Below are positions 7,932 to 30,833 of a DNA stretch of 36,796 bases, in pieces. Source of the stretch: a virus. Lineage: Duplodnaviria; Heunggongvirae; Uroviricota; Caudoviricetes. The stretch is taken from the IMG/VR virus record IMGVR_UViG_2537562172_000001, positions 1-36,796 of that record. One strand, written 5' to 3'. The notes under the pieces were generated by a model that worked only from the letters and a program-made list of their open reading frames with translations, was not told the DNA's origin and searched no databases. Position 1 is the first letter of the stretch. Each line of letters opens with the position of its first letter. The position numbers and the translations under genes are program-made.

Positions 7932-7967
7932 AACCGCTAATGGTCAGATTAGCGGTTATTTTGTTTT
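7932..7967. terminator. Bidirectional rho-independent terminator between the tail operon and the invertase gene
   Basis: Stem aaccgctaat / attagcggtt with 6-nt loop, then ATTTTGTTTT on the plus strand and an A-rich run upstream (T-run for the minus strand). The invertase stop lies in the hairpin. Confidence 0.6.
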
Positions 7968-8543
7968 CTGACTCTTCTCTATTGTTCCGCTTGATTCTCC
8001 TGCGGGGTGGTAACGATAAATCGTCGATGTACCAATGCCGTAAATTATTGCCAGTTGTTTTCTGTCGTGACCGTTTTTAATCAGCCTTGCTATTTGCTCA
8101 TGCTGTTCTTTTGTCAGCTTCGGGCGACGTCCGCCTGTGCGCCCCCGTGCGCGCGCTGCTGCCAGTCCGGCCAGTGTACGTTCAACAATTAATTCACGTT
8201 CCATTTCAGCCAGGGCACCCATCACGTGGAAGAAAAAACGCCCCATTGGAGAAGATGTATCTATGCTGTCGGTCAGACTGCGAAAATTAATCCCTCGCTC
8301 CCGTAGTTCCCCGACGAGAGAAATCAGATGTTTCATGCTTCGCCCGAGGCGATCCAGTTTCCAGACAACCAGCGTGTCACCTTTTTGAAGGCGCTTTAAA
8401 GCGCGTTTTAATCCCGGTCGGTCTGTCTTTGTCCCGCTTAATTTATCTTCAAATATTTGTTCACATCCTGCACAAACAAGAGCGTTTCGTTGCAGGTCTG
8501 TATTCTGGTCATTTGTTGATACCCTTACATAGCCAATCAGCAC
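7956..8543 (-). CDS. Serine-recombinase DNA invertase (Gin/Pin/Cin/Hin family)
   Basis: Translation contains LIGYVRVSTNDQNTDLQ (catalytic Ser region) and a C-terminal HTH (GIGTSTIYRY) typical of DNA invertases. Probable GTG start at 8543 with GGGAGA at SD spacing. Adjacent to a gix-like site. Confidence 0.9.
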   Translation of the reverse strand: MLIGYVRVSTNDQNTDLQRNALVCAGCEQIFEDKLSGTKTDRPGLKRALKRLQKGDTLVVWKLDRLGRSMKHLISLVGELRERGINFRSLTDSIDTSSPMGRFFFHVMGALAEMERELIVERTLAGLAAARARGRTGGRRPKLTKEQHEQIARLIKNGHDRKQLAIIYGIGTSTIYRYHPAGESSGTIEKSQKTK

Positions 8544-8597
8544 GCTGAATCTCCCGTCCAAAAGCGTAAATCATGCCATGCAGGTCAGAAACGGCCA

Positions 8598-8627
8598 TTA
8601 TCTAAAACCTCGGTTTACAGGAAACGG
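8598..8627. repeat. gix/cix-like inversion crossover site (right inverted repeat)
   Basis: ttatctaaaacctcggtttacaggaaacgg resembles the Gin/Cin recombination-site consensus, and is a near-perfect inverted copy of the site at 11665..11691. Confidence 0.7.
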
Positions 8628-9628
8628 TAAATCAGGCTTCTGGCGCATTACAGAAAAAACAGAACGGCGCAGATATTCCCGATAAAAAACTATTCCTGCG
8701 TAATATCGGCACAACAAATTCAACAACCATGTCTTTTAGTGGTGGTGCTGGATGGTTCAAACTGGCAACTGTAACAATGCCACAAGCCAGTTCCGTGGTT
8801 TACATAAGCCTGATTGGTGGCGCAGGGTATAACGTTGGCTCCTCGCATCAAGCAGGCATCTCTGAGCTGGTTCTGCGTGCCGGAAATGGGAATCCAAAAG
8901 GTATTACTGGTGCATTATGGCGACGGACATCGTTTGGATTTACTAATTTTGCATGGGTGAATACATCCGGTAATACCTATGATGTTTATGTTGAAATAGG
9001 TAATTACGCCACAGGTGTTAATATTCAGTGGGATTATACCAGTAACGCCAGCGTAACGATTCATACATCACCAACTTATACAGCGAATAAACCAACAGGC
9101 CTGACAGATGGAACTGTATATGTAATTTACAGTTCGCACATTAAACCGACTGCTGCTGAGGTTGGGGCGTTGTCATTATCTGGCGGTCAATTGAATGGTG
9201 CACTGGGCATCGGAACATCCAGTGCTCTTGGTGGTAACTCGATTGTTTTGGGTGATAATGACACGGGATTTAAACAAAATGGCGACGGGCATCTGGATGT
9301 TTATGCGAATAACGTCCATGTTATGCGCTTTGTCTCCGGCAGTATTCAAAGTAATAAAACCATAAATATTACGGGGCGTGTTAATCCCACAGATTACGGT
9401 AACTTTGATTCCCGCTATGTCCGGGATATCCGGCTTGGTGGTGCTGCCACATACAAACCTGCGAACAATGGCATGACATGGACACATCAGGCACCGTCCG
9501 GGTGTGTATATTCCGGCATTATTGTTCAGGATACCGGCTCAAACTCTGCCGATAACATTGGTGGCGTATATTACAGGCCGGTTCAGAAATACATTAACGG
9601 GACATGGTATAACGTGGCACAGGTATAA
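8628..9628 (+). CDS. Silent alternative tail-fibre C-terminal cassette (promoterless; fused to H constant region after inversion)
   Basis: Frame is open from the crossover site (ORF track starts at the ATG at 8729). The first residues after the site ([17 protein letters not shown]) parallel H after its crossover site, and the C-terminus ...[12 protein letters not shown] parallels the H end ...[12 protein letters not shown]. Confidence 0.7.
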
Positions 9629-9631
9629 TTT

Positions 9632-10159
9632 ATGCAGCATTTGATAAATATAACAGCGGGTAATCCAAAAACGGTTGAACAATATCAATTGACAAAGGGT
9701 TTTGATGTTGTCTGGTTTTTTTCAGAAGATGGTAAGAACTGGTACGAAGAACAAAAGTATTTTGCTGATGACACGATAAAAATAGCGTACGACAAAGATA
9801 ATATTATCCGCTATGTGGAAAAGGATGTGACAGCTATCAGACCAGATGGATTAAGTGTTGTTGAAGTGCCAGATATTACTGCTAACCGACGGGCGGACAT
9901 TTCAGGGAACTGGATGTTTAAGGACGGCACAGTGATTAAACGAATTTATACGGCGGAGGAATTGCAGCAGCAGGCAGAAAATCGGAAAGCCAGACTTCTT
10001 GCAGATGCTGAATCCGTGATTTTGCCGCTGGAGCGTGCTGTCAGGCTGAATATGGCAACAGATGAGGAGCGTAGCCGACTGGATGCATGGGAACGCTACA
10101 GCGTTCTGGTCAGTCGTGTGGATACGGCAAATCCTGAATGGCCACAAAAGCCTGAATAA
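9632..10159 (+). CDS. Tail fibre assembly protein, alternative copy (G')
   Basis: 175 aa. N-terminus [24 protein letters not shown] is nearly identical to that of the convergent G copy, with a divergent C-terminal half, the usual pattern for paired fibre chaperones in invertible segments. Confidence 0.8.
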
Positions 10160-10164
10160 AAATT

Positions 10165-10190
10165 AAGGCCCGATAGCGGGCCTTGTTTCA
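10165..10190. terminator. Hairpin between the convergent tail-fibre assembly genes
   Basis: Stem aaggcccg / cgggcctt with short loop and flanking T/A-rich runs on both strands. Confidence 0.45.
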
Positions 10191-10721
10191 TTCTGGTTGT
10201 TCTGGAAACGTTACTGGCAGGCTGGAGGTGTCTGTGGATTCGACCTTCTGCGCATAGAGCATCCACTCGGTTAATTTTTGTTTATTCTCGTCGGAAATGA
10301 TGCCCAGCCGTAGCTGTGAGTCCCATAGCTGGGTTTTATCCCTGACAAGTTGCAACAGGCTTTGCTTTTCATTCTCTGCCTGCTGCCTCTGTTCCTCCTC
10401 GGTATAAGTTCGCTTTATCACTACGCCATCTTTGAACATCCATTTCCCCGAAATATCAGCCCGGCGATTTGCTGTAATATCAGGCAACTCAACGACACTT
10501 AAACCTTCTGGATTAATTGCCGATACATCTTTATCCATAGCAACAATTATTCCCTCTACAGTGTAAGCCAGTTTTATTGTATCTTTCTGAAAGTTTTTCA
10601 CTTCCTCATACCAGTTTTTTCCGTCTTCGGACCATAACCAGATAACATTAAAATTCTTTGTTAGCTGATATTGTTCAACGGTTTTTGGATTACCTGCGAC
10701 AATGTTTTTTAAATGCTGCAT
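10188..10721 (-). CDS. G: Tail fibre assembly protein (expressed copy)
   Basis: 177 aa, directly downstream of H in the same orientation. N-terminus [24 protein letters not shown]. Confidence 0.85.
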
Positions 10722-21558: not shown

Positions 21559-23310
21559 ATGATTCAGGACGCTTTTGTGCGCCAGCGTGCGCGGCAACTT
21601 TACTGGCAGGGTTATCCGCCCGCAGAAATATCGCGTCTGATGGGAATAAACCCGAACACGATTTATGCGTGGAAAAAACGCGACCAGTGGGATGAAACGC
21701 CACCCGTGCAGCGTGTCACTCAGTCCATCGATGCGCGCCTCATCCAGCTTACTGAAAAACAGAATAAAACAGGCGGTGACTTTAAGGAAATAGACCTGCT
21801 GACCCGGCAACTTAAAAAGCTGCATGATGGCCAGCCGGATGTGATGGCCGCAGGAAAGAAAGGCCGGGCGAAAAAACTCAAAAATCATTTCACGCCGGAA
21901 CAGATTGCCGCACTGCGGGAAAAAATCATCAGCAGGCTGGAGTGGCATCAGCGGGGCTGGTTTGACTCCCTGACCCTTTGCAGGGAAGCCGGGATACGTA
22001 ACAGGATGATCCTGAAATCCCGACAGATTGGGGCGACCTGGTATTTTGCACAGGAAGCTCTGCTGATGGCGCTGCGTGACGATGTGGCGCAACCTTACCA
22101 GCGTAACCAGATTTTTTTGTCTGCGTCGCGTCGTCAGGCGTTCCAGTTTAAAAGCATTATTCAGAAGGCCGCGGCTGAAGTTGATGTGGAGCTGAAAGGG
22201 GGCGATAAAATCATCCTCTCCAACGGCGCAGAGCTGCATTTTCTCGGCACTTCTGCTGCGTCGGCACAGTCCTATACGGGCAATTTTTATTTTGATGAAT
22301 TTTTCTGGGTCAGTCGCTTTGCTGAACTGCGCAAGGTGGCTGGCGCTATGGCAACCCTCAGCGGACTGCGGCGCACCTACTTCTCTACGCCATCCACCGA
22401 AACGCACGAGGCATACGCCTACTGGAACGGTGACCGCTGGAACGAGAAAAAGGCCTCGCATAAACGCCAGCGTTTTTCTGTGGACTGGAAAACGCTGCAT
22501 AACGGGCTTATCTGCCCTGACCGGACGTGGCGGCAAATTGTCACGCTGGAAGATGTGGTTAATCACGGCTGGAAACACACCGATATTGATGAAATTCGTG
22601 ATGAAAACACCGAAGACGAGTTCCTCAATCTCTATATGTGTGAGTTTGTCCGAGAAGGGGAATCGGCATTTAACCTGAATATCCTGATTGGCTGCGGTGT
22701 TGACGGATACGACGACTGGAAAGACTGGAAACCTTTTGCTCCCCGCCCGATGGGGAATCGTCCGGTATGGATTGGGTATGACGCAAACGGCAGCAGTGGA
22801 AACGGCGACAGCGGCGCTGTGTCCGTGGTGGTTCCTCCGGCTGTTCCTGGTGGCCGTTTTCGAACGGTGGAGACGCGACGCGTTCAGGGGCTGGAGTTTG
22901 AAGAGCAGGCCAGAGTCATTGAAGAGTTCACGTGTCGCTACAACGTGGAACACATCGGCATTGATGTGACGGGCGGGAACGGGGAGGCTGTTTATCAGAT
23001 AGTGAAACGGTTTTTCCCTGCCGCTATTCCGTACACCTTCACGCTGTCATCAAAACGGTCGCTGGTACTGAAAATGCTGCAAATAATGCGTGCCGGGCGG
23101 TGGGAATACGATCGCGCCGAACGCGAGCTGGTCGCGGCCTTTAACGCCGTGCGTAAGGTGAAAACACCGGGCGGCTTTATCACTTACGAAACGGACCGCG
23201 CGAGGGGGATCAGCCACGGCGACCTTGCGTGGGCAACCATGCTTGCTGTCATTAACGAACCAATTGGCGGCGAAGGAGAAAACGAGCGTTTCACGGTTAT
23301 GGAGTTCTGA
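21559..23310 (+). CDS. P: Terminase ATPase (large) subunit
   Basis: 583 aa (P2 gpP is 590 aa), divergent from O and followed by the portal gene. Confidence 0.9.
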   Translation: MIQDAFVRQRARQLYWQGYPPAEISRLMGINPNTIYAWKKRDQWDETPPVQRVTQSIDARLIQLTEKQNKTGGDFKEIDLLTRQLKKLHDGQPDVMAAGKKGRAKKLKNHFTPEQIAALREKIISRLEWHQRGWFDSLTLCREAGIRNRMILKSRQIGATWYFAQEALLMALRDDVAQPYQRNQIFLSASRRQAFQFKSIIQKAAAEVDVELKGGDKIILSNGAELHFLGTSAASAQSYTGNFYFDEFFWVSRFAELRKVAGAMATLSGLRRTYFSTPSTETHEAYAYWNGDRWNEKKASHKRQRFSVDWKTLHNGLICPDRTWRQIVTLEDVVNHGWKHTDIDEIRDENTEDEFLNLYMCEFVREGESAFNLNILIGCGVDGYDDWKDWKPFAPRPMGNRPVWIGYDANGSSGNGDSGAVSVVVPPAVPGGRFRTVETRRVQGLEFEEQARVIEEFTCRYNVEHIGIDVTGGNGEAVYQIVKRFFPAAIPYTFTLSSKRSLVLKMLQIMRAGRWEYDRAERELVAAFNAVRKVKTPGGFITYETDRARGISHGDLAWATMLAVINEPIGGEGENERFTVMEF

Positions 23311-24356
23311 TGAGCAGAAAAAATAAAAAAGTGCGCATGAGTTCACGCATTGATCTCGCTGATGCGCTCAGGAAAGAATCATCGCTCAGTGCATTCACAT
23401 TTGATGGTCCTTATCGCCTGACCGGGCATGACCTGCTGGACAATATGTACTGTGCTGATAACGGGCGGTGGTATGAAACCCCGGTGGACTGGTACGGTCT
23501 GGCAAGAACTGCCCGGCAAACGTCCTGGCATCAGTCTGCGCTTTACTTTAAGCGCAATGTATTACTCGGTTGCTACATCCCGCACCCGTTGCTTTCCCGG
23601 CAGGATTTCTCGGCGCTGGCGCTGGACTGGTTTGTGTTCGGTAACGCATTCCTTGAGCTTCGAAGCAATATGCTCGGCGAACCGCTTAAATTACGGCACG
23701 CCCTGGCGAAATACATGCGACGCGGAAGCGATCTTGAATCATGGTGGTATGTGCAGGATGGCAAGGACGCGTTTCAGTTTCGCCCTGGCAAAGTGTGCCA
23801 CCTGATGAATCCTGACATTAACCAGGAAATCTACGGCATGCCGGAATATCTCGGCGCATTACTCTCGGCCAGCCTGTCTCATTCGGCGGACATGTTCAGA
23901 AAACTGTATTACGACAACGGATCCCACGCCGGGTGCATCATCTACATCGGTGCGGCGCAGGTAAACCGCGAAAGCATGGACTCCCTGAAAGAAACGCTAC
24001 AGGGTGCACGTGGTGGTGGTGCGTTTAAAAACGTGCTCATTCATGCGCCCAACGGTGGCAAAGAGGGGGTGCAAATTTTGCCGTTCCAGCAGATCACCGC
24101 AAAGGATGAGTTCATGAATGTTAAGGTGGCATCCCGTGATGATGTGCTGGCTGCGCACCGCGTTCCGCCGCAACTGATGGGGGCGATGCCAGGCGAAAAA
24201 AGTGCGTTTGGTGATGTGGAGAAGGCCGCGCGGGTTTACGCAATTAACGAGCTGATGCCCGTCATGGAGGCCATGAAGCACATCAATGACTGGCTTGGCG
24301 AAGAGGTGATCCGTTTTAATTCTTATGCTCTTCTTGATGAAAAAACAGCCCCGTGA
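23310..24356 (+). CDS. Q: Portal protein
   Basis: 348 aa (P2 gpQ is 344 aa), start overlapping the P stop (TGATG). Confidence 0.9.
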   Translation: MSRKNKKVRMSSRIDLADALRKESSLSAFTFDGPYRLTGHDLLDNMYCADNGRWYETPVDWYGLARTARQTSWHQSALYFKRNVLLGCYIPHPLLSRQDFSALALDWFVFGNAFLELRSNMLGEPLKLRHALAKYMRRGSDLESWWYVQDGKDAFQFRPGKVCHLMNPDINQEIYGMPEYLGALLSASLSHSADMFRKLYYDNGSHAGCIIYIGAAQVNRESMDSLKETLQGARGGGAFKNVLIHAPNGGKEGVQILPFQQITAKDEFMNVKVASRDDVLAAHRVPPQLMGAMPGEKSAFGDVEKAARVYAINELMPVMEAMKHINDWLGEEVIRFNSYALLDEKTAP

Positions 24357-24374
24357 TGGGGCTGTCCTTTTTTA
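24345..24374. terminator. Bidirectional terminator hairpin between convergent Q and the orphan gene
   Basis: Stem acagcccc / ggggctgt with 5-nt loop; T-run CCTTTTTT downstream on the plus strand and an A6 run upstream (T-run on the minus strand). Confidence 0.55.
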
Positions 24375-24896
24375 CCAGAGTTGAACCATTTTCTGGGTGC
24401 CGTCAGGCTTGAGATTATCAATTTCAGAGAGAACGTAATATTGAATGGCTTCACAAACGGTGGTGTATGGTGAATTACCTTCTTTAAGTGGCACGATATT
24501 ATTATTAACGCGAGCCTGTATTTCATCGTTATACATTGCGATCGAAAGAGGAGTATGCACGAAGGCGACTTCGCCAGGTGTGTCGTCAACCACTGTCTCA
24601 ATGCTGAAAATCAGTTTTCGCTCATCATTGCCGCCCCTTGCTTTGGGGGTAGCGGCAGGAATCTGAGATAAAGGCATTCTGCGAAACCCTTCAGCCGTTT
24701 CCAGTCCGCATGAAACGTAATGCTGGCGATTACCGTCGCTATCCGTCCATGTCTGTGATGGCAGCTCCAGAGAGATTTCATAAGCATCAACAATTCCCTG
24801 GGCAATGCGTACAAGCGGGGTCAGGTCTTCATTGCGGCGAAAACTCTCCTTTACCTGATCTCGTTTTTCTCGTAACTGCTTGTAATTAATGACCAT
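24372..24896 (-). CDS. Orphan hypothetical protein (about 174 aa) between portal gene and the expected cos region
   Basis: ORF 24372..24935. Likely start is the ATG at 24896 (MVINYKQLREK...), preceded by GGAGG at 8 nt. No family recognised. Confidence 0.6.
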   Translation of the reverse strand: MVINYKQLREKRDQVKESFRRNEDLTPLVRIAQGIVDAYEISLELPSQTWTDSDGNRQHYVSCGLETAEGFRRMPLSQIPAATPKARGGNDERKLIFSIETVVDDTPGEVAFVHTPLSIAMYNDEIQARVNNNIVPLKEGNSPYTTVCEAIQYYVLSEIDNLKPDGTQKMVQLW

Positions 24897-25507
24897 AGAA
24901 CAGCCTCCATTGATTTCTTTGCTCGTATTTTGCACTTATGAAGTGTGGTCGGCAAGGTGCCGCATCACTGACGCGCTTCGCTTGTCTGCTGCTTCGCCGG
25001 GGCATAAAAAATTTATGCCCCGACTCTCCAGCTCCTGTATCAATCAGATAATTTCACGACGTCTTCCGACTTATCGCTATCATCGACGGCCAGACTCTTA
25101 CACAATCCCGCCGCGCTGACTGCATGTTCTCGCCGCCTCAGTGCGATTTTGACGGCCTTACCTTTCATCCCATCAAATCAGAACACCTTACGTCTTTTTC
25201 ACGCTCAGCGTGAGCGATACAGCCATTCTGTTGTGTCGCTGCGACATCGTTCAGGGAATGCTATTTACCCCCTGAAACGCGGGCTGTTCCCCCGTCACCT
25301 GCGCGCAGAAAAAACGCGTTTTTTGTGCACGTACGGATCCTTGATGGATCCAGCTGCCATGCGGGCCTGAAGGGTAAAAAGTCGTTCAAAAAAATTGTGC
25401 AAATTTGTGCACAATCTTGCATTAAAATCAACGTTCAGTGGATGTATTTAAGCGAAAAAAAAGATCTTTGTATAATTTCGTTCGGTTACGTTGGTGAGAG
25501 GTTCTGA

Positions 25508-25909
25508 GTGAAAGACATCACATATTGGAATGATAAAATTCAGAAACAAATTGATAGTTATCCTGAAGCTGTTCGAGAAAGGATAAATTTTGAGCTTGTT
25601 GCACTGCAGAGCGATTGTCCTCATTCTTTCGACAGTTTCGATTTTCCAGTGGATGGTGATGATGCCTTGGGGGTTCCACCTGCTCAAAAAAAATCAATGC
25701 GGGAAACGATTGGTCGCTACGCAATGCAATTAACCATCAAGAGTAGTGATTCTTATCGTATGATTTACGTTGCGAAATTTGCGGAGTCTGTTTACATACT
25801 TCATACATTTAAGAAAAAGACAAATGGTGTGTCAAAAAAAGAATATGAGACAGCTGCCGCAAGATACAAACAATTAGTGGAGTATCGTCGTAAAAATGGC
25901 TTAAGATAG
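25508..25909 (+). CDS. RelE/ParE-superfamily toxin, Gp49/HigB-like
   Basis: C-terminal region YRMIYVAKFAESVYILHTFKKKTNGVSKKEYETAAARYKQ fits the Gp49-like (HigB) pattern. GTG start. Immediately followed by an XRE HTH gene. Confidence 0.65.
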   Translation: MKDITYWNDKIQKQIDSYPEAVRERINFELVALQSDCPHSFDSFDFPVDGDDALGVPPAQKKSMRETIGRYAMQLTIKSSDSYRMIYVAKFAESVYILHTFKKKTNGVSKKEYETAAARYKQLVEYRRKNGLR

Positions 25910-25979
25910 CTTGCAGGTATCTCAAATCTGATATAACATAATCAATGTCAGCAACATCGCTGATTAAGGCTGGAGAGTT

Positions 25980-26297
25980 ATGGAATTCGTCGTAGTCAAA
26001 AACCCTTATGCGTCATCAAGTAGCTCTGTAAATGAAGCTAGTGATAAACACATCCGGGCCCAATTAATGGTTATTATCCGAAAAATGATTCAGGAGCGCG
26101 GTCTTACCCAGCGAGAAGCTGCTGAATTGCTGGAAACAACCCAACCAAGAGTAAGCGAAATCATTAATGGTAAGTTAGATAATCATACCATTGATCGACT
26201 GTTTATCATGCTAAACATCCTGGGGTGGGATTTTAAGTTTGGGTATTCCGGTGGGGTTGTTACTGCGACGGCAGAACATTCCTGTCAGGTTGCATAA
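25980..26297 (+). CDS. XRE-family HTH antitoxin (HigA-like)
   Basis: Helix-turn-helix segment LTQREAAELLETTQPRVSEIINGK, 105 aa, directly downstream of the toxin-like gene and followed by a terminator. Confidence 0.65.
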   Translation: MEFVVVKNPYASSSSSVNEASDKHIRAQLMVIIRKMIQERGLTQREAAELLETTQPRVSEIINGKLDNHTIDRLFIMLNILGWDFKFGYSGGVVTATAEHSCQVA

Positions 26298-26304
26298 ATA
26301 TTAA

Positions 26305-26337
26305 GCCCCTGACGGGGCCAACCGTCAGGGGCTTTTC
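26305..26337. terminator. Rho-independent terminator after the toxin-antitoxin pair
   Basis: Stem gcccctgacgg / ccgtcaggggc with 6-nt loop, followed by TTTTC. Confidence 0.65.
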
Positions 26338-26462
26338 AACACAAAGAAATGATAGTCTGAGAAATATCATCACCTTGATGTTTTGCATGTACAACTGTGA
26401 TTCTAGTCAATCCAGGCAGATAATCAAGGTAAAAATCATTCTCAGTAAGGAGGTGATTATGG

Positions 26463-26612
26463 ATGGCTTTGAAATCAATTGTAAAAAAACCGGCTCCGAA
26501 AGGATTTCGTTGGCAGTTTTGCCGATACCGTAAGGTTCGTGGTGATTCTGGTCGAAAGCTGGATGCTCATGAGTATGGCTGGAAAGCTTGGGCGTTTCTA
26601 GTGCGAAGCTGA
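26463..26612 (+). CDS. Small basic hypothetical protein (49 aa), not in ORF track
   Basis: AGGAGG about 8 nt upstream of the ATG at 26463. Translation MALKSIVKKPAPKGFRWQFCRYRKVRGDSGRKLDAHEYGWKAWAFLVRS. Followed by a terminator hairpin. Confidence 0.4.
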   Translation: MALKSIVKKPAPKGFRWQFCRYRKVRGDSGRKLDAHEYGWKAWAFLVRS

Positions 26613-26623
26613 TATTTGATATT

Positions 26624-26652
26624 TAAAAGCATGGCGAAAGCCATGCTTTTTG
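26624..26652. terminator. Bidirectional terminator between the small ORF and parR-like gene
   Basis: Stem aaagcatggc / gccatgcttt with GAAA loop, followed by TTT; A-run upstream. Confidence 0.6.
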
Positions 26653-26655
26653 TGA

Positions 26656-26970
26656 TCATTCAGGAAAAAATTCCTGAATATTCTTTTTTATTTGACTTAT
26701 ATTCTGATTTTTGCAACCAACAGGCTCGCTGTTATGCCAGCCCCATATGTGATTGTTGGCAGGCATATTTTCCCCCTCTGACCATTCAGCCAGCCAGTAA
26801 GCAAAGGCAGGATCGTTTTTAATGAGTGCCAGTCCAGCCAGAAATGCCGCGCGTTGCGCGCGGCTGCGTTCGGAGGCTGGCAGGCTGTCGAGATAATTAC
26901 ACGCTTCCCGTTCACTCTTGACTGCAGCTGGCTTCAGATAGAAACTTATCCGTCTGGTTGGTGTCGTCAT
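26656..26970 (-). CDS. parR: ParR-like centromere-binding adaptor (ribbon-helix-helix)
   Basis: From the Met at 26970: MTTPTRRISFYLKPAAVKSEREACNYLDSLPASERSRAQRAAFLAGLALIKNDP resembles R1 ParR (..FKLNPDVNQTDKIVCDTLDSIPQGERSRLNRAALTAGLALYRQDP, recalled from memory). AAGGAG SD; start lies 4 nt after the parM stop. Confidence 0.7.
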   Translation of the reverse strand: MTTPTRRISFYLKPAAVKSEREACNYLDSLPASERSRAQRAAFLAGLALIKNDPAFAYWLAEWSEGENMPANNHIWGWHNSEPVGCKNQNISQIKKNIQEFFPE

Positions 26971-26974
26971 TGGT

Positions 26975-27934
26975 TTACTCCTTGTCCATTGCGTACAGCC
27001 CATTAACCAGAGCAAACTGTGGCACCCCGTCCGCGATGAAAGTCGCATTAACTCCGCAGGCTTCGCGGATAGCGGGTGCCACAATCTCCGCCCCGCCACC
27101 GACAACCATCACCCGCCCGTAACCCGAAAAACCCGCCAGCGCGCGGATCACGCGTTGTTTCAGTGTTTCTTCCTTTTCACGAATAACCGCCATCAGGCTG
27201 GCGTAATGCGCGTCATTGTGGATGTGCTGGCGCAGCCAGGCTTCATCATGGCGATGTTCGATAATGGTATTGGCGATGTGGTGACTGGTGCGCATACCGT
27301 TAGTGGCCATCACCGACAGTACGGCATCGGCCATCAGAGAAACGCCTACGTGTGGATCGCAAAACACCTGGCTGATACCTGCCAGTTGTCCCTGAACCTT
27401 TGCCACATCCAGCGTGGTTCCGCCTAAATCCACAATCAGCAGGGATTCAAACGGACTCATGTCAGCCAGTGCTTTAAAGCCAGCCGGAATGGATTCAGGC
27501 ATAACCCGTACGTTACGGATAGTGAATGCTTCGCCGTTCTGGTACTCCACCGGGCGCATGACGTTCGCTTTTTTGCGGTTGATGTTGGCCATGTCCGGCT
27601 GTGCGTTTGTGTCGAAATACTCGCTCAGTGGCAGGGTGACAACCACATCCACTTCCTGTGGTGTGATGCCTGATTTGACCAGCGCGTGATGAATGGCGAT
27701 TACATTCACATCGCTGTACTGGTATTGCGTGTCAGTCGTCTGGACAAAGCGATCGCTGACCGGATCAAAGCCATAGCGCACGCCATCAAGCATGTAGTTC
27801 GCGGGATGCGTGCCACCGAACGGCGCAGACCATTCCGACTTGAAGCTGTTCGGGCTGATGGCGTTGCGGCGTTCGCCGTTCTCAGTCCATGCCAGCTTGA
27901 TGTTGGTGGAGCCGTCGTCGATACAAATTTTCAT
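26975..27934 (-). CDS. parM: ParM/StbA-like actin-fold ATPase (type II plasmid partition NTPase)
   Basis: 319 aa. MKICIDDGSTNIKLAW (phosphate-1 motif), SPNSFK, YQYSDVNV..HHAL, TLPLSEY, RKKANV, VMPESIPAG and LIVDLGGTTLDV (phosphate-2 motif) align along the whole length with R1 ParM as recalled. Confidence 0.85.
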   Translation of the reverse strand: MKICIDDGSTNIKLAWTENGERRNAISPNSFKSEWSAPFGGTHPANYMLDGVRYGFDPVSDRFVQTTDTQYQYSDVNVIAIHHALVKSGITPQEVDVVVTLPLSEYFDTNAQPDMANINRKKANVMRPVEYQNGEAFTIRNVRVMPESIPAGFKALADMSPFESLLIVDLGGTTLDVAKVQGQLAGISQVFCDPHVGVSLMADAVLSVMATNGMRTSHHIANTIIEHRHDEAWLRQHIHNDAHYASLMAVIREKEETLKQRVIRALAGFSGYGRVMVVGGGAEIVAPAIREACGVNATFIADGVPQFALVNGLYAMDKE

Positions 27935-27963
27935 GTCGCTTTTCCTTATGTTGATTAATTAAT

Positions 27964-28077
27964 CGTTTACAGGATTCTGAAATCCCGCTCTTGCCTGTTT
28001 TGTGCGCGCTTCATATATCGCGGCACGTTTTTTGCTCATTTACGGGATTTGTGAATCCCGTTTCTGTCTGTTTTTTG
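27964..28077. repeat. parC-like centromere/operator candidate: two ~40-bp direct repeats, each containing an inverted repeat
   Basis: Copy 1 cgtttacaggattctgaaatcccgctcttgcctgttttgtg and copy 2 catttacgggatttgtgaatcccgtttctgtctgttttttg lie upstream of parM. Copy 2 sits within the last codons of gene A. Confidence 0.45.
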
Positions 28078-30833
28078 TTTCCACTGGTCAGGCTACCCCG
28101 CAGCAGGTCTGCTTTGCGGCGGGCGCGTTCAGTTGTTTCACTGATTCTCTGTGCGTGCTCTGCGTCGCGGATGGCGCGTAGCATGTCAGAAAGTACGGTA
28201 ACGGGTGTTTTCATGGTGTTCTGGTCTTGCTGAAGTGTGGATGCCAGGCGTGCGGCGGCTTCAGGGGCTGATGCCCCTAGTTGTTCCAGATAGCTGGCGA
28301 CCGGGTTATGGCGGATCTCCGTGCTGCTTACGCCGTGATTACGACTCAGGCGTTGCCAGAGCTGCGTGATTCGGCTGTCCGGGCGGGTATCCGGTTTGCG
28401 TACAATTTCAAATCCCTGCGGTGCAATGATGCTGCCGTCAACGTACAGGCTGCCGCCCCGTAACAGGTGCTGCATCTGCTGTTCACCGATATGCAGGCCG
28501 AGAGATTCAGCAGACTCCCGCCATTCTTTAGCGAGTAACTCGTGGTTATCAGGCAAAGGCCGTGGCTGTTTGCGGCTCTGTGTCCAGTTCTGCATTTCAT
28601 CACTGCTGTTTTTTGCCTGTTTGTCACGAAGCGAACGCATCAGCGCCCGGCGTTCGTGCCGTTTCAGTGAGCGCATCCATTCGTTCACTTCAACGCCGTC
28701 AGGGAGCTGCGGCCACGGTGCTGGCCGTTCTTTCGGCTGTTCTGTCCCGTTGTTGTCCGTTTCCTGTACACGGGGACAGTTATTGCCACGAGTCCAAGGG
28801 GCGGCAGGGCCGCCCTGAAGGTCAAAACCATTTTCACGGGCGCTGTCTTCCGCTTCCGGTTTACGTCTTACCAGCTTCCAGTTATCCGGGTGCGTGCACA
28901 CGCGGGAAGACTCCCCAATGAGCGGCGACCAGATCCCGTAAATCTGTACGCTCTGTTCGCCGTAATCGTTCAGCTCATCTGCGAGGTCGTAGGCGGTGCG
29001 AATCAGGTAGTCTTTGCGTGGAACAAGTACGCCGCCCTGTTTCTCAATGTAGGTGGCAAAACATCCGGCATCAGCGGCAGCAAGAACCGCGTCCATTGCG
29101 TCATCCTTCAGCCGTTGCGGGCCTTCCGGGTTGCGTGCCATCTGGCTGGCAAGGCGGCGGAGTTCACGCCACACCTGACGGGAGGGGATACCAAAGAACT
29201 GGAACTGGCGGACACGGTGAAGGCGCGCCCAGCCGATGGCGCGTTCCACGCTCTCGGCCATTGATTTTCCGGTTTCGTGGTCAACGCGTGGCTTGCCCGT
29301 TTTCGGGTCGATGCCATCCACGGCGCGGCTGTCCAGGTTTTTTCCGATGTAGGTGGCGATGTAGCTGGTTGGCGTGCCTTTTGAGCCGTCGACGTACTCC
29401 GCCTTAAAACGCGGAGTAATATCATCGCCCAGCTCGTGACGATCTTCCTGAATGGCAATATCGCGGGTGTGGGACACAATGGTGTCGATTTCTTCCGGAT
29501 GTGCAAAGACCATCATATGCCAGTGCACGGTGCCGTCATGGTGAGGCTCCACCGTGCGGATGCCATACCAGCGCAGGCCGTCGCGGTTCAGTTTTTTGCG
29601 GACCGCCGCAAAAAACGTGTTAACCAGGTAATCGCTGGAGTCGCGCATGGTGGCCCCGTTCCATTTGGGATTCGGATGACCGTTCTCTGTTGTGGCGTGG
29701 TATTTTGACGGGCAGGTGACAGTCAGAAACACCGCTTTGTCGCCACGGGCTTCGGCCAGAAGTTCCAGCCCTTTCATGGTAGCCATCATTTCTGCCTTAC
29801 GGTGAACCGGGTTACTTACTCCCGCGTAATACACCGTCTCGAGATCAATCGTGAACCCGTCTTCGTTTTCCAGCATGAAACTTTTCAGGAAATCGCGTGT
29901 TTTCTCGCGCTGTGCGCGAAACTCGCTTAACGCGTCCTGGCTCAGATAGGGCGATGTTTTTCTGGAAACCAGACAGGCGGCGCGGAGTTGTTCTTCTCTC
30001 CACTCGCAACGTAACAGCCACAGTTTGCGTTTCCACCATTCTGCACAGGTCAGGCGAAGGATTGCGCCCGGCAGCAGCTCCGTGTCCGGTTCGTTCCTCC
30101 GGTCTTTGTCTGTTGTCAGTGCGTCATAATGTGGAGGCATGGCGTGCAGGTGTAACGCCATGCGGGCCAGCATCTGATACGCCTTCAGGGTTACATCCAT
30201 GGTCAGCTCGCCATCGGTCGAGCCAAAGCCATCGCAGAGTTTTTCGAAGGTGCTGCTGAACATCGCCGCCGTCATGGTGGCCAGCGTCTGTATCTGGTGT
30301 TTGTTGAGCTGCGGCAGGTAAAGCAAATCGTCCAGGCGTTCGCGTCCGGCAAGGGAGCGATAACCCGGTGTCAGCCAGCGGTGATCGGTGCGCTCCAGAC
30401 GTTCGAATATTTTGCGCAGGGTCCCACGCGCATAGCGTTCTGCCTGCCTGGCGTTTTTTCCTTTCTGACGATCGGCTTCCTGTTTTTTGCGCAGGAAGGA
30501 GAGGTGGCGAATAAGCGGATCTCGCAGATAGGACGGCAGCAGGCGCAGCGAGGCCATGGCTTCATCCACCGCGCCGCGTGCCTGTTTTCTGGCGTCTCCT
30601 GCCAGTGTGATGGTTTTGTCCTGTTTTTCCTGTGCGTCCAGGCTTTTATTAATCAGGTTGCCCAGCGGCGTGGCGGAGAACGCCGCATCAGCCATTTCCT
30701 GGCGGCGCTCGTTCTCTACCCGGTAGGCATCCAGCCAGGAGGAAAGCGCGGATTCAGGAGCGGGGATCCCCGTTCCTTCACGCCCCACTGCGTGGCGCGG
30801 TTGTTGCCAGTCCCTGATGTACTCCGTTGACAT
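28011..30833 (-). CDS. A: Replication gene A protein (rolling-circle replication initiator endonuclease)
   Basis: Contains VFLTVTCPSKYH, RTVEPHHDGTVHWHMMVF and YIATYIGKNLD, paralleling P2 gpA motifs (ITLTAPSKYH, VVEPHHDGTPHWHMMLF, YIAKYISKNIDG). 940 aa from the first Met; start uncertain. Confidence 0.9.
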   Translation of the reverse strand: MSTEYIRDWQQPRHAVGREGTGIPAPESALSSWLDAYRVENERRQEMADAAFSATPLGNLINKSLDAQEKQDKTITLAGDARKQARGAVDEAMASLRLLPSYLRDPLIRHLSFLRKKQEADRQKGKNARQAERYARGTLRKIFERLERTDHRWLTPGYRSLAGRERLDDLLYLPQLNKHQIQTLATMTAAMFSSTFEKLCDGFGSTDGELTMDVTLKAYQMLARMALHLHAMPPHYDALTTDKDRRNEPDTELLPGAILRLTCAEWWKRKLWLLRCEWREEQLRAACLVSRKTSPYLSQDALSEFRAQREKTRDFLKSFMLENEDGFTIDLETVYYAGVSNPVHRKAEMMATMKGLELLAEARGDKAVFLTVTCPSKYHATTENGHPNPKWNGATMRDSSDYLVNTFFAAVRKKLNRDGLRWYGIRTVEPHHDGTVHWHMMVFAHPEEIDTIVSHTRDIAIQEDRHELGDDITPRFKAEYVDGSKGTPTSYIATYIGKNLDSRAVDGIDPKTGKPRVDHETGKSMAESVERAIGWARLHRVRQFQFFGIPSRQVWRELRRLASQMARNPEGPQRLKDDAMDAVLAAADAGCFATYIEKQGGVLVPRKDYLIRTAYDLADELNDYGEQSVQIYGIWSPLIGESSRVCTHPDNWKLVRRKPEAEDSARENGFDLQGGPAAPWTRGNNCPRVQETDNNGTEQPKERPAPWPQLPDGVEVNEWMRSLKRHERRALMRSLRDKQAKNSSDEMQNWTQSRKQPRPLPDNHELLAKEWRESAESLGLHIGEQQMQHLLRGGSLYVDGSIIAPQGFEIVRKPDTRPDSRITQLWQRLSRNHGVSSTEIRHNPVASYLEQLGASAPEAAARLASTLQQDQNTMKTPVTVLSDMLRAIRDAEHAQRISETTERARRKADLLRGSLTSGNKKQTETGFTNPVNEQKTCRDI

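Follow-up and report, generated by a model that had tools for sequence, protein, structure and literature searches.

A predicted toxin-first type II toxin–antitoxin pair and a p49 cassette in low-GC cargo of a P88-like prophage

Toxin–antitoxin (TA) modules in which a Gp49-family (PF05973) toxin gene precedes an HTH_37 (PF13744) gene are known from Tn3 transposons (PMC7157771). A published list of toxin families gives gp49 as ribosome-dependent mRNases with toxin-antitoxin gene order (PMC11980606). In the P2 family of phages, the interval between gpQ/cos and gpA is equivalent to the tin/old hotspot (Rousset et al. 2022, PMC9122126). In this work, we analyze the IMG/VR virus record IMGVR_UViG_2537562172_000001, a stretch of 36,796 nucleotides referred to below as the window, which is a P2-family (Peduoviridae) prophage of the P88-like group (Xuanwuvirus). 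Our subject is a cargo (moron) of low guanine–cytosine (GC) content at 25424..26655 (plus strand, 1.23 kb), which holds a predicted toxin gene, a predicted antitoxin gene, and a cassette encoding a 49-aa protein, p49.

The pair in the window shares with the Tn3 modules (PMC7157771) the two protein families, the gene order, and the status of a passenger, a likeness drawn from families and order alone; the carrier is a transposon in that case and a P2-family prophage hotspot in this one. The toxin-first order is also common to the window pair and to Rts1/P. vulgaris higBA. Among related systems with PDB entries, the Gp49-family toxin HigB1 of M. tuberculosis (Rv1955, the toxin of the TAC system; PDB 7nbu/7awk) shows 15% identity to the window toxin, but no SecB-like chaperone gene is present here, and the antitoxin belongs to HTH_37. 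Identity is 12-21% for S. pneumoniae HigBA (PDB 6af3/6af4) and V. cholerae HigBA2 (5mje, 8a0x), and no sequence match could be detected between the window antitoxin and its counterparts in these two complexes. Since Gp49/HTH_37 modules have already been described, and since RefSeq already names genes identical to these as a RelE/ParE-family toxin and a helix-turn-helix (HTH) protein, the TA pair itself is of a known type. The p49 cassette is the sole unusual part of the cargo.

The cargo and its gene pair

The cargo is the lowest-GC 1.2-kb stretch of the window, with a GC content of 40.3% compared with 52.3% for the whole window and 52.5% and 55.6% for the 5-kb flanks. Alignments with related prophages show homology breaking at both ends: the left junction is at about 25422-25424, and the right one, at about 26655, comes immediately ahead of the parR terminator. 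In a megablast search of 5426 complete E. coli genomes, two matched the query at full length with 99.1% identity, while 78 further E. coli matches stopped after query bases 122-128, corresponding to window positions 25300 to about 25424. In those 78 genomes, the backbone left of the junction is 91-93% identical, and other cargo lies beyond it. At the same site, three relatives (L002-L004) carry an HTH gene with a hypothetical gene, an HTH gene with a PIN gene, or nothing annotated, and in all three the same parR-parM-gpA block comes next. Among phage records, the cargo was left unmatched by megablast.

The cargo lies between gpQ/cos and gpA, at a site that is variable among related prophages. 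On its left side lie the terminase (21559-23310) and portal (23310-24356) genes and the cos region, the latter between an open reading frame (ORF) of the phrog_5091 family and the cargo; on its right side lie the genes for ParR/StbB (26656-26970), ParM (26975-27934, minus strand), and the gpA replication endonuclease (28011-30833, minus strand). The site resembles the P2 tin/old hotspot (PMC9122126) in its position relative to portal, cos, and gpA and in the fact that the cargo differs among near-identical prophages; it differs in that parMR intervenes between the cargo and gpA in this P88-like lineage. In the part of the supplementary tables of PMC9122126 that was covered, neither WP_000652085 nor WP_000397568 occurs, nor do the terms Gp49 and HigB. 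In another P2-like contig (L011), the cargo composed of the TA pair and p49 itself adjoins the portal gene.

The first cargo gene (25508..25909, plus strand) encodes a protein of 133 aa and has a GTG start preceded by the ribosome-binding site GAGAGG (25496-25501). Over residues 58-121, its product matches Pfam Gp49 (PF05973) with 50 bits, compared with a gathering score of 23.9 (E=3.2e-13). The second gene (25980..26297, plus strand), with the Shine–Dalgarno (SD) sequence GGAGAG at 25972-25977, encodes a 105-aa XRE-type protein that matches Pfam HTH_37 (PF13744) with 67.7 bits at a cut-off of 27 (E=7.7e-19). It is followed by a bidirectional terminator hairpin (26303..26334) with a 13-bp stem of which nine pairs are GC, and this stem shows compensatory changes across loci. 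In every homologous locus examined, the toxin gene is followed by the HTH_37 gene, and these loci come from at least 10 unrelated mobile-element contexts, including Enterobacter lambdoid prophages, a Mu-like phage, another P2-like phage, a Rep3/ParA plasmid, integrase-flanked islands, and genomes of Photorhabdus, Pantoea, Serratia, and Endozoicomonas. Such conservation of an adjacent, co-oriented pair across genomes is what is expected of a type II TA system. We regard it as probable (roughly 0.8) that 25424-26655 is horizontally acquired low-GC cargo carrying a toxin-first type II TA operon in the cos-proximal hotspot of P88-like prophages.

An earlier reading of the same DNA, referred to here as the original prediction, had proposed two co-oriented genes, a Gp49/HigB-like toxin followed by an XRE protein and a terminator, located in an AT-rich, separately acquired moron at the tin/old-equivalent hotspot. 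The gene arrangement, the hairpin, the toxin family (by both hidden Markov model (HMM) search and predicted fold, described below), the GC contrast in windowed calculation, the foreign origin suggested by this contrast together with the two homology breaks, and the hotspot location were all borne out. The span it had delimited, 25380-26340 (39.9% GC), encloses both TA genes and misses the third cargo gene, which lies beyond 26340. The HMM search with HigA and XRE models gave a divided answer, as the XRE character of the second protein was clear from HTH_37, whereas the HigA equivalog TIGR02607 was not reached (14.3 bits at a cut-off of 47.7). With TIGR02607 below and HTH_37 above the cut-off, the antitoxin can be called HigA-like in role only.

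Apart from this low HigA score, several other points weigh against a TA system here. The toxin has no NCBIfam match, and PADLOC returned sub-threshold matches only (NsnC, E=0.0026; PDC-M64C, E=5.4e-5), which gives no evidence for membership of a named defense system. Moreover, the toxicity, neutralization, RNA cleavage, and DNA binding attributed to the pair are all inferred from sequence. If the assignment is right, the pair adds one cargo type to the P2-family defense hotspot, and nothing changes conceptually.

The p49 cassette

The third cargo gene, p49 (26463..26612, plus strand), is unannotated and encodes a 49-aa basic protein matching phrog_33859 (E=4.8e-24). The protein is hydrophilic, with a pI of 10.8 and a grand average of hydropathicity (GRAVY) of -0.69, and has no membrane helix. 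The ORF is protein-coding: 28 of the 49 residues are invariant, and differences are distributed over the three codon positions as 155, 98, and 362. The wider family comprises 65 cluster representatives, and no Pfam, NCBIfam, or credible PDB match was obtained. The gene is followed at the right end of the cargo by a terminator (26625..26650, plus strand; AAAAGCATGGC...GCCATGCTTTT) that is conserved after p49 in all loci.

Upstream of p49 lies a leader of 165 nt with three supported helices, whose structured part spans 26348..26445 (plus strand). Hairpin A is formed by 26348-26354 with 26365-26371, helix B by 26372-26379 with 26423-26430, and the long-range helix C by 26357-26363 with 26439-26445, so that helix C abuts the SD sequence at 26447-26456. 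In the leader alignment, 94% of cells are paired, and 10 pairs are changed on both sides compared with 3.3 +/- 1.4 in shuffles; helix C is found in 8 of 8 leaders in six sequence versions. Collection scans for the leader returned solely copies identical to leader sequences already in the comparison, and within 25000-27000 no Rfam family reached its gathering score or came close to it.

The minus strand of the leader carries a candidate antisense promoter, picked up by the promoter scan (-35 TTGATT at 26427-26422, -10 TAGAAT at 26405-26400), from which an RNA of about 95 nt (~26393 to 26296) is predicted; promoter and RNA together occupy 26296..26427. A minus-strand TTGAnn and a TAnnAT (or close) element separated by 16-18 nt are present in all seven leaders compared, while the surrounding loop varies. 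The predicted RNA would end at the bidirectional terminator at 26303-26334; in several loci, the minus-strand T-tail of this terminator is superior to the plus-strand one. In architecture, the cassette can be compared with type I TA loci of the hok/sok kind: it has a small ORF, a long, structured leader in which one helix abuts the SD sequence, strong terminators, and a predicted cis-antisense RNA with its own promoter. It differs in its product, as typical type I toxins are small and hydrophobic, whereas p49 is basic and hydrophilic and lacks a membrane helix.

The cassette (26298-26655) follows this TA pair in seven contexts, which raises the question of whether the cargo is a three-part unit in which the p49 cassette serves the TA module as a regulated output or as its third component and is not an independent passenger. 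The weak plus-strand T-tail of the intervening terminator in several loci is compatible with read-through from the pair into p49. Additionally, an E. coli chromosome, a lambdoid phage, and Acinetobacter plasmids have the cassette after pairs of XRE and ImmA/IrrE genes, and a small E. coli plasmid has it next to a pair of this kind; these modules are likewise XRE-regulated. The same occurrences refute the notion of p49 being confined to this TA pair and, as they place the cassette behind a different type of module, mark it as separable and not specific to the pair. Its possession of its own terminators points in the same direction, and about half of the TA loci are devoid of p49 (L005, L008, L009, L012, L103, L104). 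With evidence on both sides, the three-part unit appears to us doubtful, although it survives better than the other alternatives considered in this work.

A different view of the cassette can be put forward tentatively, and we would not wager on it: p49 may belong to a previously undescribed mobile unit that docks immediately after XRE-regulated two-gene modules, has the translation of p49 gated by helix C and the ~95-nt cis-antisense RNA, and supplies p49 as an effector or output when the upstream module is triggered. Candidate host modules are the HigB-like/HTH_37 pair and the XRE+ImmA/IrrE pairs found on phages and plasmids from Escherichia, Acinetobacter, and other genera. A conserved small-protein cassette with predicted RNA-level control travels with XRE-type modules.

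Toxin, antitoxin, and the nature of the pair

Close relatives of the window toxin, whose ORF contains the peptide SYRMIYVAKFAESVYILHTFKKK, are few (22 clusters, 47-99% identity), and a profile of this clade retrieves 1271 PF05973 proteins. Modeling with AlphaFold2 on a 119-sequence alignment reached a predicted local distance difference test (pLDDT) score of 81.7; an earlier prediction on the 21-sequence alignment of the clade had given 54.7 and was discarded. The predicted topology is β1-α1-α2, a disordered loop at residues 38-53, β2 to β5, and a long C-terminal α3. In the model, the fold is of the RelE/BECR type and includes the long C-terminal helix seen in Gp49-like toxins; it comes closest to M. 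tuberculosis HigB1, S. pneumoniae HigB, and V. cholerae HigB2.

In a profile alignment with PDB sequences (E=2.4e-5), R84 of the window toxin pairs with R73 of S. pneumoniae HigB and K103 with K92. These two pneumococcal residues have been equated with R77 and K95 of HigB1 and with R61 and R81 of RelE (PMC9098466), so the basic residues of the catalytic site are conserved. Among the 119 sequences, K62, Y87, and H99 are invariant, and R84, K103, K104, and R119 are conserved in at least 90%. The toxin most likely acts on mRNA as a ribosome-dependent endonuclease, in the manner of HigB1, S. pneumoniae HigB, and V. cholerae HigB2. That it is instead a ParE-like gyrase poison or an inactive protein of RelE fold seems improbable to us.

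The clade of the window toxin is set apart by an acidic, disordered insert between α2 and β2 that is 25-40 residues long, variable in length, and composed of 32% Asp/Glu; canonical Gp49 proteins have about 12 residues at this place, and the insert also distinguishes the clade from M. tuberculosis HigB1. In the window toxin, it covers residues ~35-58 (window 25610-25680) and is the shortest among proteins more than 60% identical to this toxin.

The antitoxin resembles a structural-genomics HTH protein (PDB 2a6c, E=2.8e-11). Outside the HTH, alignment revealed a nearly invariant N-terminal stretch of 14 residues (MEFxxxxNPYxSS), which we infer may be the toxin-binding segment. The antitoxin would most likely neutralize the toxin by direct binding and repress transcription.

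XRE proteins are common phage regulators, and the annotations of the PHROG families matched by the second protein read HTH DNA-binding protein or transcriptional regulator, so the pair might be pictured as a phage regulatory cassette made of a Cro/CI-like XRE regulator and an accessory protein; we give this very little credence, because the pair moves as a unit among unrelated phage types, plasmids, and islands, independently of immunity regions, and because its first gene is a genuine member of the RelE-fold family.

As to the role of the TA pair in the lysogen, the sequence data point in two directions. The hotspot location favors an anti-phage role, possibly by abortive infection, and the occurrence of relatives on plasmids and transposons favors addiction or stabilization.

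Control sequences and neighboring features

The toxin would be transcribed from a promoter, P1, with a candidate -10 element TATAAT at 25471..25476 (plus strand). Of 10 homologous loci, eight have a GTATAAT/GTATGAT/GTATACT-like element that precedes the start codon by about 30 nt. A full sigma-70 promoter at 25471 was not called by the scan, and a good -35 element is lacking. Of the promoter that had been proposed here from the TATAAT sequence, the -10 element is therefore present and conserved, whereas a convincing -35 element is missing. A perfect 10-bp palindrome with a GATC/Dam site, AAAGATCTTT (25460-25469), abuts this -10 element and was weighed as a possible operator of P1; homologs do not conserve it, and it is probably incidental.

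The antitoxin is predicted to have an additional internal promoter, P2 (25911..25939, plus strand), with the -35 element TTGCAG (25911-25916), a 17-nt spacer, and the -10 element TAACAT (25934-25939). A -35 element of the form TTGCAn/TTGACC is present in seven loci, and TAnnnT is in register in 10 of 10. The predicted P2 would have a counterpart in Rts1/P. vulgaris higBA, where higA has a promoter of its own.

The best operator candidate is an 18-bp imperfect palindrome, TATCTCAAATCTGATATA (25918..25935, 7 of 9 pairs), which spans the P2 spacer and the start of its -10 element within the 70-bp spacer between toxin and antitoxin genes. Across 10 loci, 11 of its 18 positions are invariant and five more are at least 90% conserved, compared with an average column identity of 52% over the whole spacer alignment; in the Photorhabdus locus (L008), it becomes a perfect 20-bp palindrome. 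This sequence occurs once in the window. The genome-contig scan was of no help for the spacer analysis, as it recovered distant Gp49 relatives only, with at most 54% identity on a short segment.

About 10 nt downstream of the conserved block, just upstream of the SD sequence, a hairpin (25947..25964, plus strand) is located in the antitoxin leader. All 10 loci have a hairpin at this position, and the stem sequence varies among them (CAGC/GCTG, CAGTT/AACTG, GUCUG/CAGGC, CCTGC/GCAGG, CCGC/GCGG). On the proposed model, 25918-25935 would serve as the operator of the antitoxin, keeping it in excess by negative feedback, and the P2 transcript would begin with the stabilizing hairpin. The conserved palindrome and promoter in the spacer make this a concrete, testable regulatory model.

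Not everything fits this model. Palindromes of 18 bp and 7/9-pair quality are frequent, with 53 in the window, so the case for the operator has to be made entirely by conservation across loci, and the spacer block could be conserved purely as a promoter or RNA feature and not as a protein-binding site. The P2 -35 element is absent in three loci, in which the toxin stop codon overlaps the element. Upstream of the P1 -10 element, nothing is conserved across homologs, and no operator-like element shared by them was found at P1; if P1 is unregulated, regulation departs from that of a textbook autoregulated operon.

The most divergent modules have longer spacers, of 189 nt in L012 (3442-3630) and 153 nt in L104 (2894-3046). 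The former contains three direct and one inverted TTTATACA repeat, and the latter contains inverted repeats. These motifs are consistent with the spacer being a regulatory region of this TA family.

The original prediction had sought the operator elsewhere, in the palindrome TTGTGCACAA at 25405-25414 with a flanking TTGTGCA repeat, which it placed at the promoter. The sequences exist upstream of the toxin gene: TTGTGCA also stands at 25395-25401 and 25323-25329, and of the eight TTGTGCA sites that the window contains, four fall in a 92-bp stretch. The palindrome, however, lies about 57 bp upstream of the TATAAT -10 element and in the phage backbone, where it is a part of the repeats TTGTGCAaatTTGTGCAcaaTcTTGCA (25395..25421), outside the TA module. 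The relatives L002-L004 read TTGTGCAaatTTGTGCActaTTGTGCA here, a run of three direct repeats in 10-bp phase that lacks the palindrome, and at the position of TTGTGCACAA most relatives carry the non-palindromic TTGTGCACTA. In addition, 27 perfect 10-bp palindromes are present in the window compared with 36 +/- 6 in shuffles, and such a chance frequency means that the palindrome alone carries no weight. As it also lies left of the cargo junction, in DNA shared with the 78 E. coli prophages that carry other cargo, and as none of the 10 homologous modules elsewhere has it ahead of the toxin gene, the autoregulatory operator is unsupported and is, by a small margin of probability below even the regulatory cassette, the least credible of the explanations weighed here.

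The deposited linear genome end of phage P88_4B11 maps to about position 25375 of the window, and the repeats lie 20-45 bp inside this end. By this evidence, the TTGTGCA repeats would belong to the cos/packaging flank, and the whole set (25323-25421) may belong to the cos/terminase recognition region. The sequence that had been proposed as the operator is part of the backbone beside cos, which calls for caution when regulatory sites are read at cargo junctions. The repeats were also considered as a ParR centromere, and this was rejected, since a different repeat pair, CGGGATT(C/T)ACAAATCCCGTAAA-like, is found upstream of parM.

Three further features of the prophage deserve mention. An ORF of the phrog_5091 family (24372-24935, minus strand, 187 aa, E=4.3e-65), with no function assigned, is located between the portal gene and cos. 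As it is present in L002 and L004 and absent in L001 and L003, the portal side of cos is variable too. Downstream of gpA, this P2-family prophage carries an actin-type partition pair, ParM/ParR (StbA/StbB), at 26656-28060, and two CGGGATT(C/T)ACAAATCC(C/T)GTAAA-like repeats upstream of parM are candidate parC sites; together they suggest a plasmid-like maintenance option. Finally, a second low-GC stretch (~43%) at 7956-10721 holds a Gin/Hin-type serine invertase gene (Resolvase, E=1.5e-50) beside a tail-fiber tip ORF, as well as two tail-fiber assembly genes in opposite orientations, and looks like an invertible host-range segment of the Mu/P1 kind.

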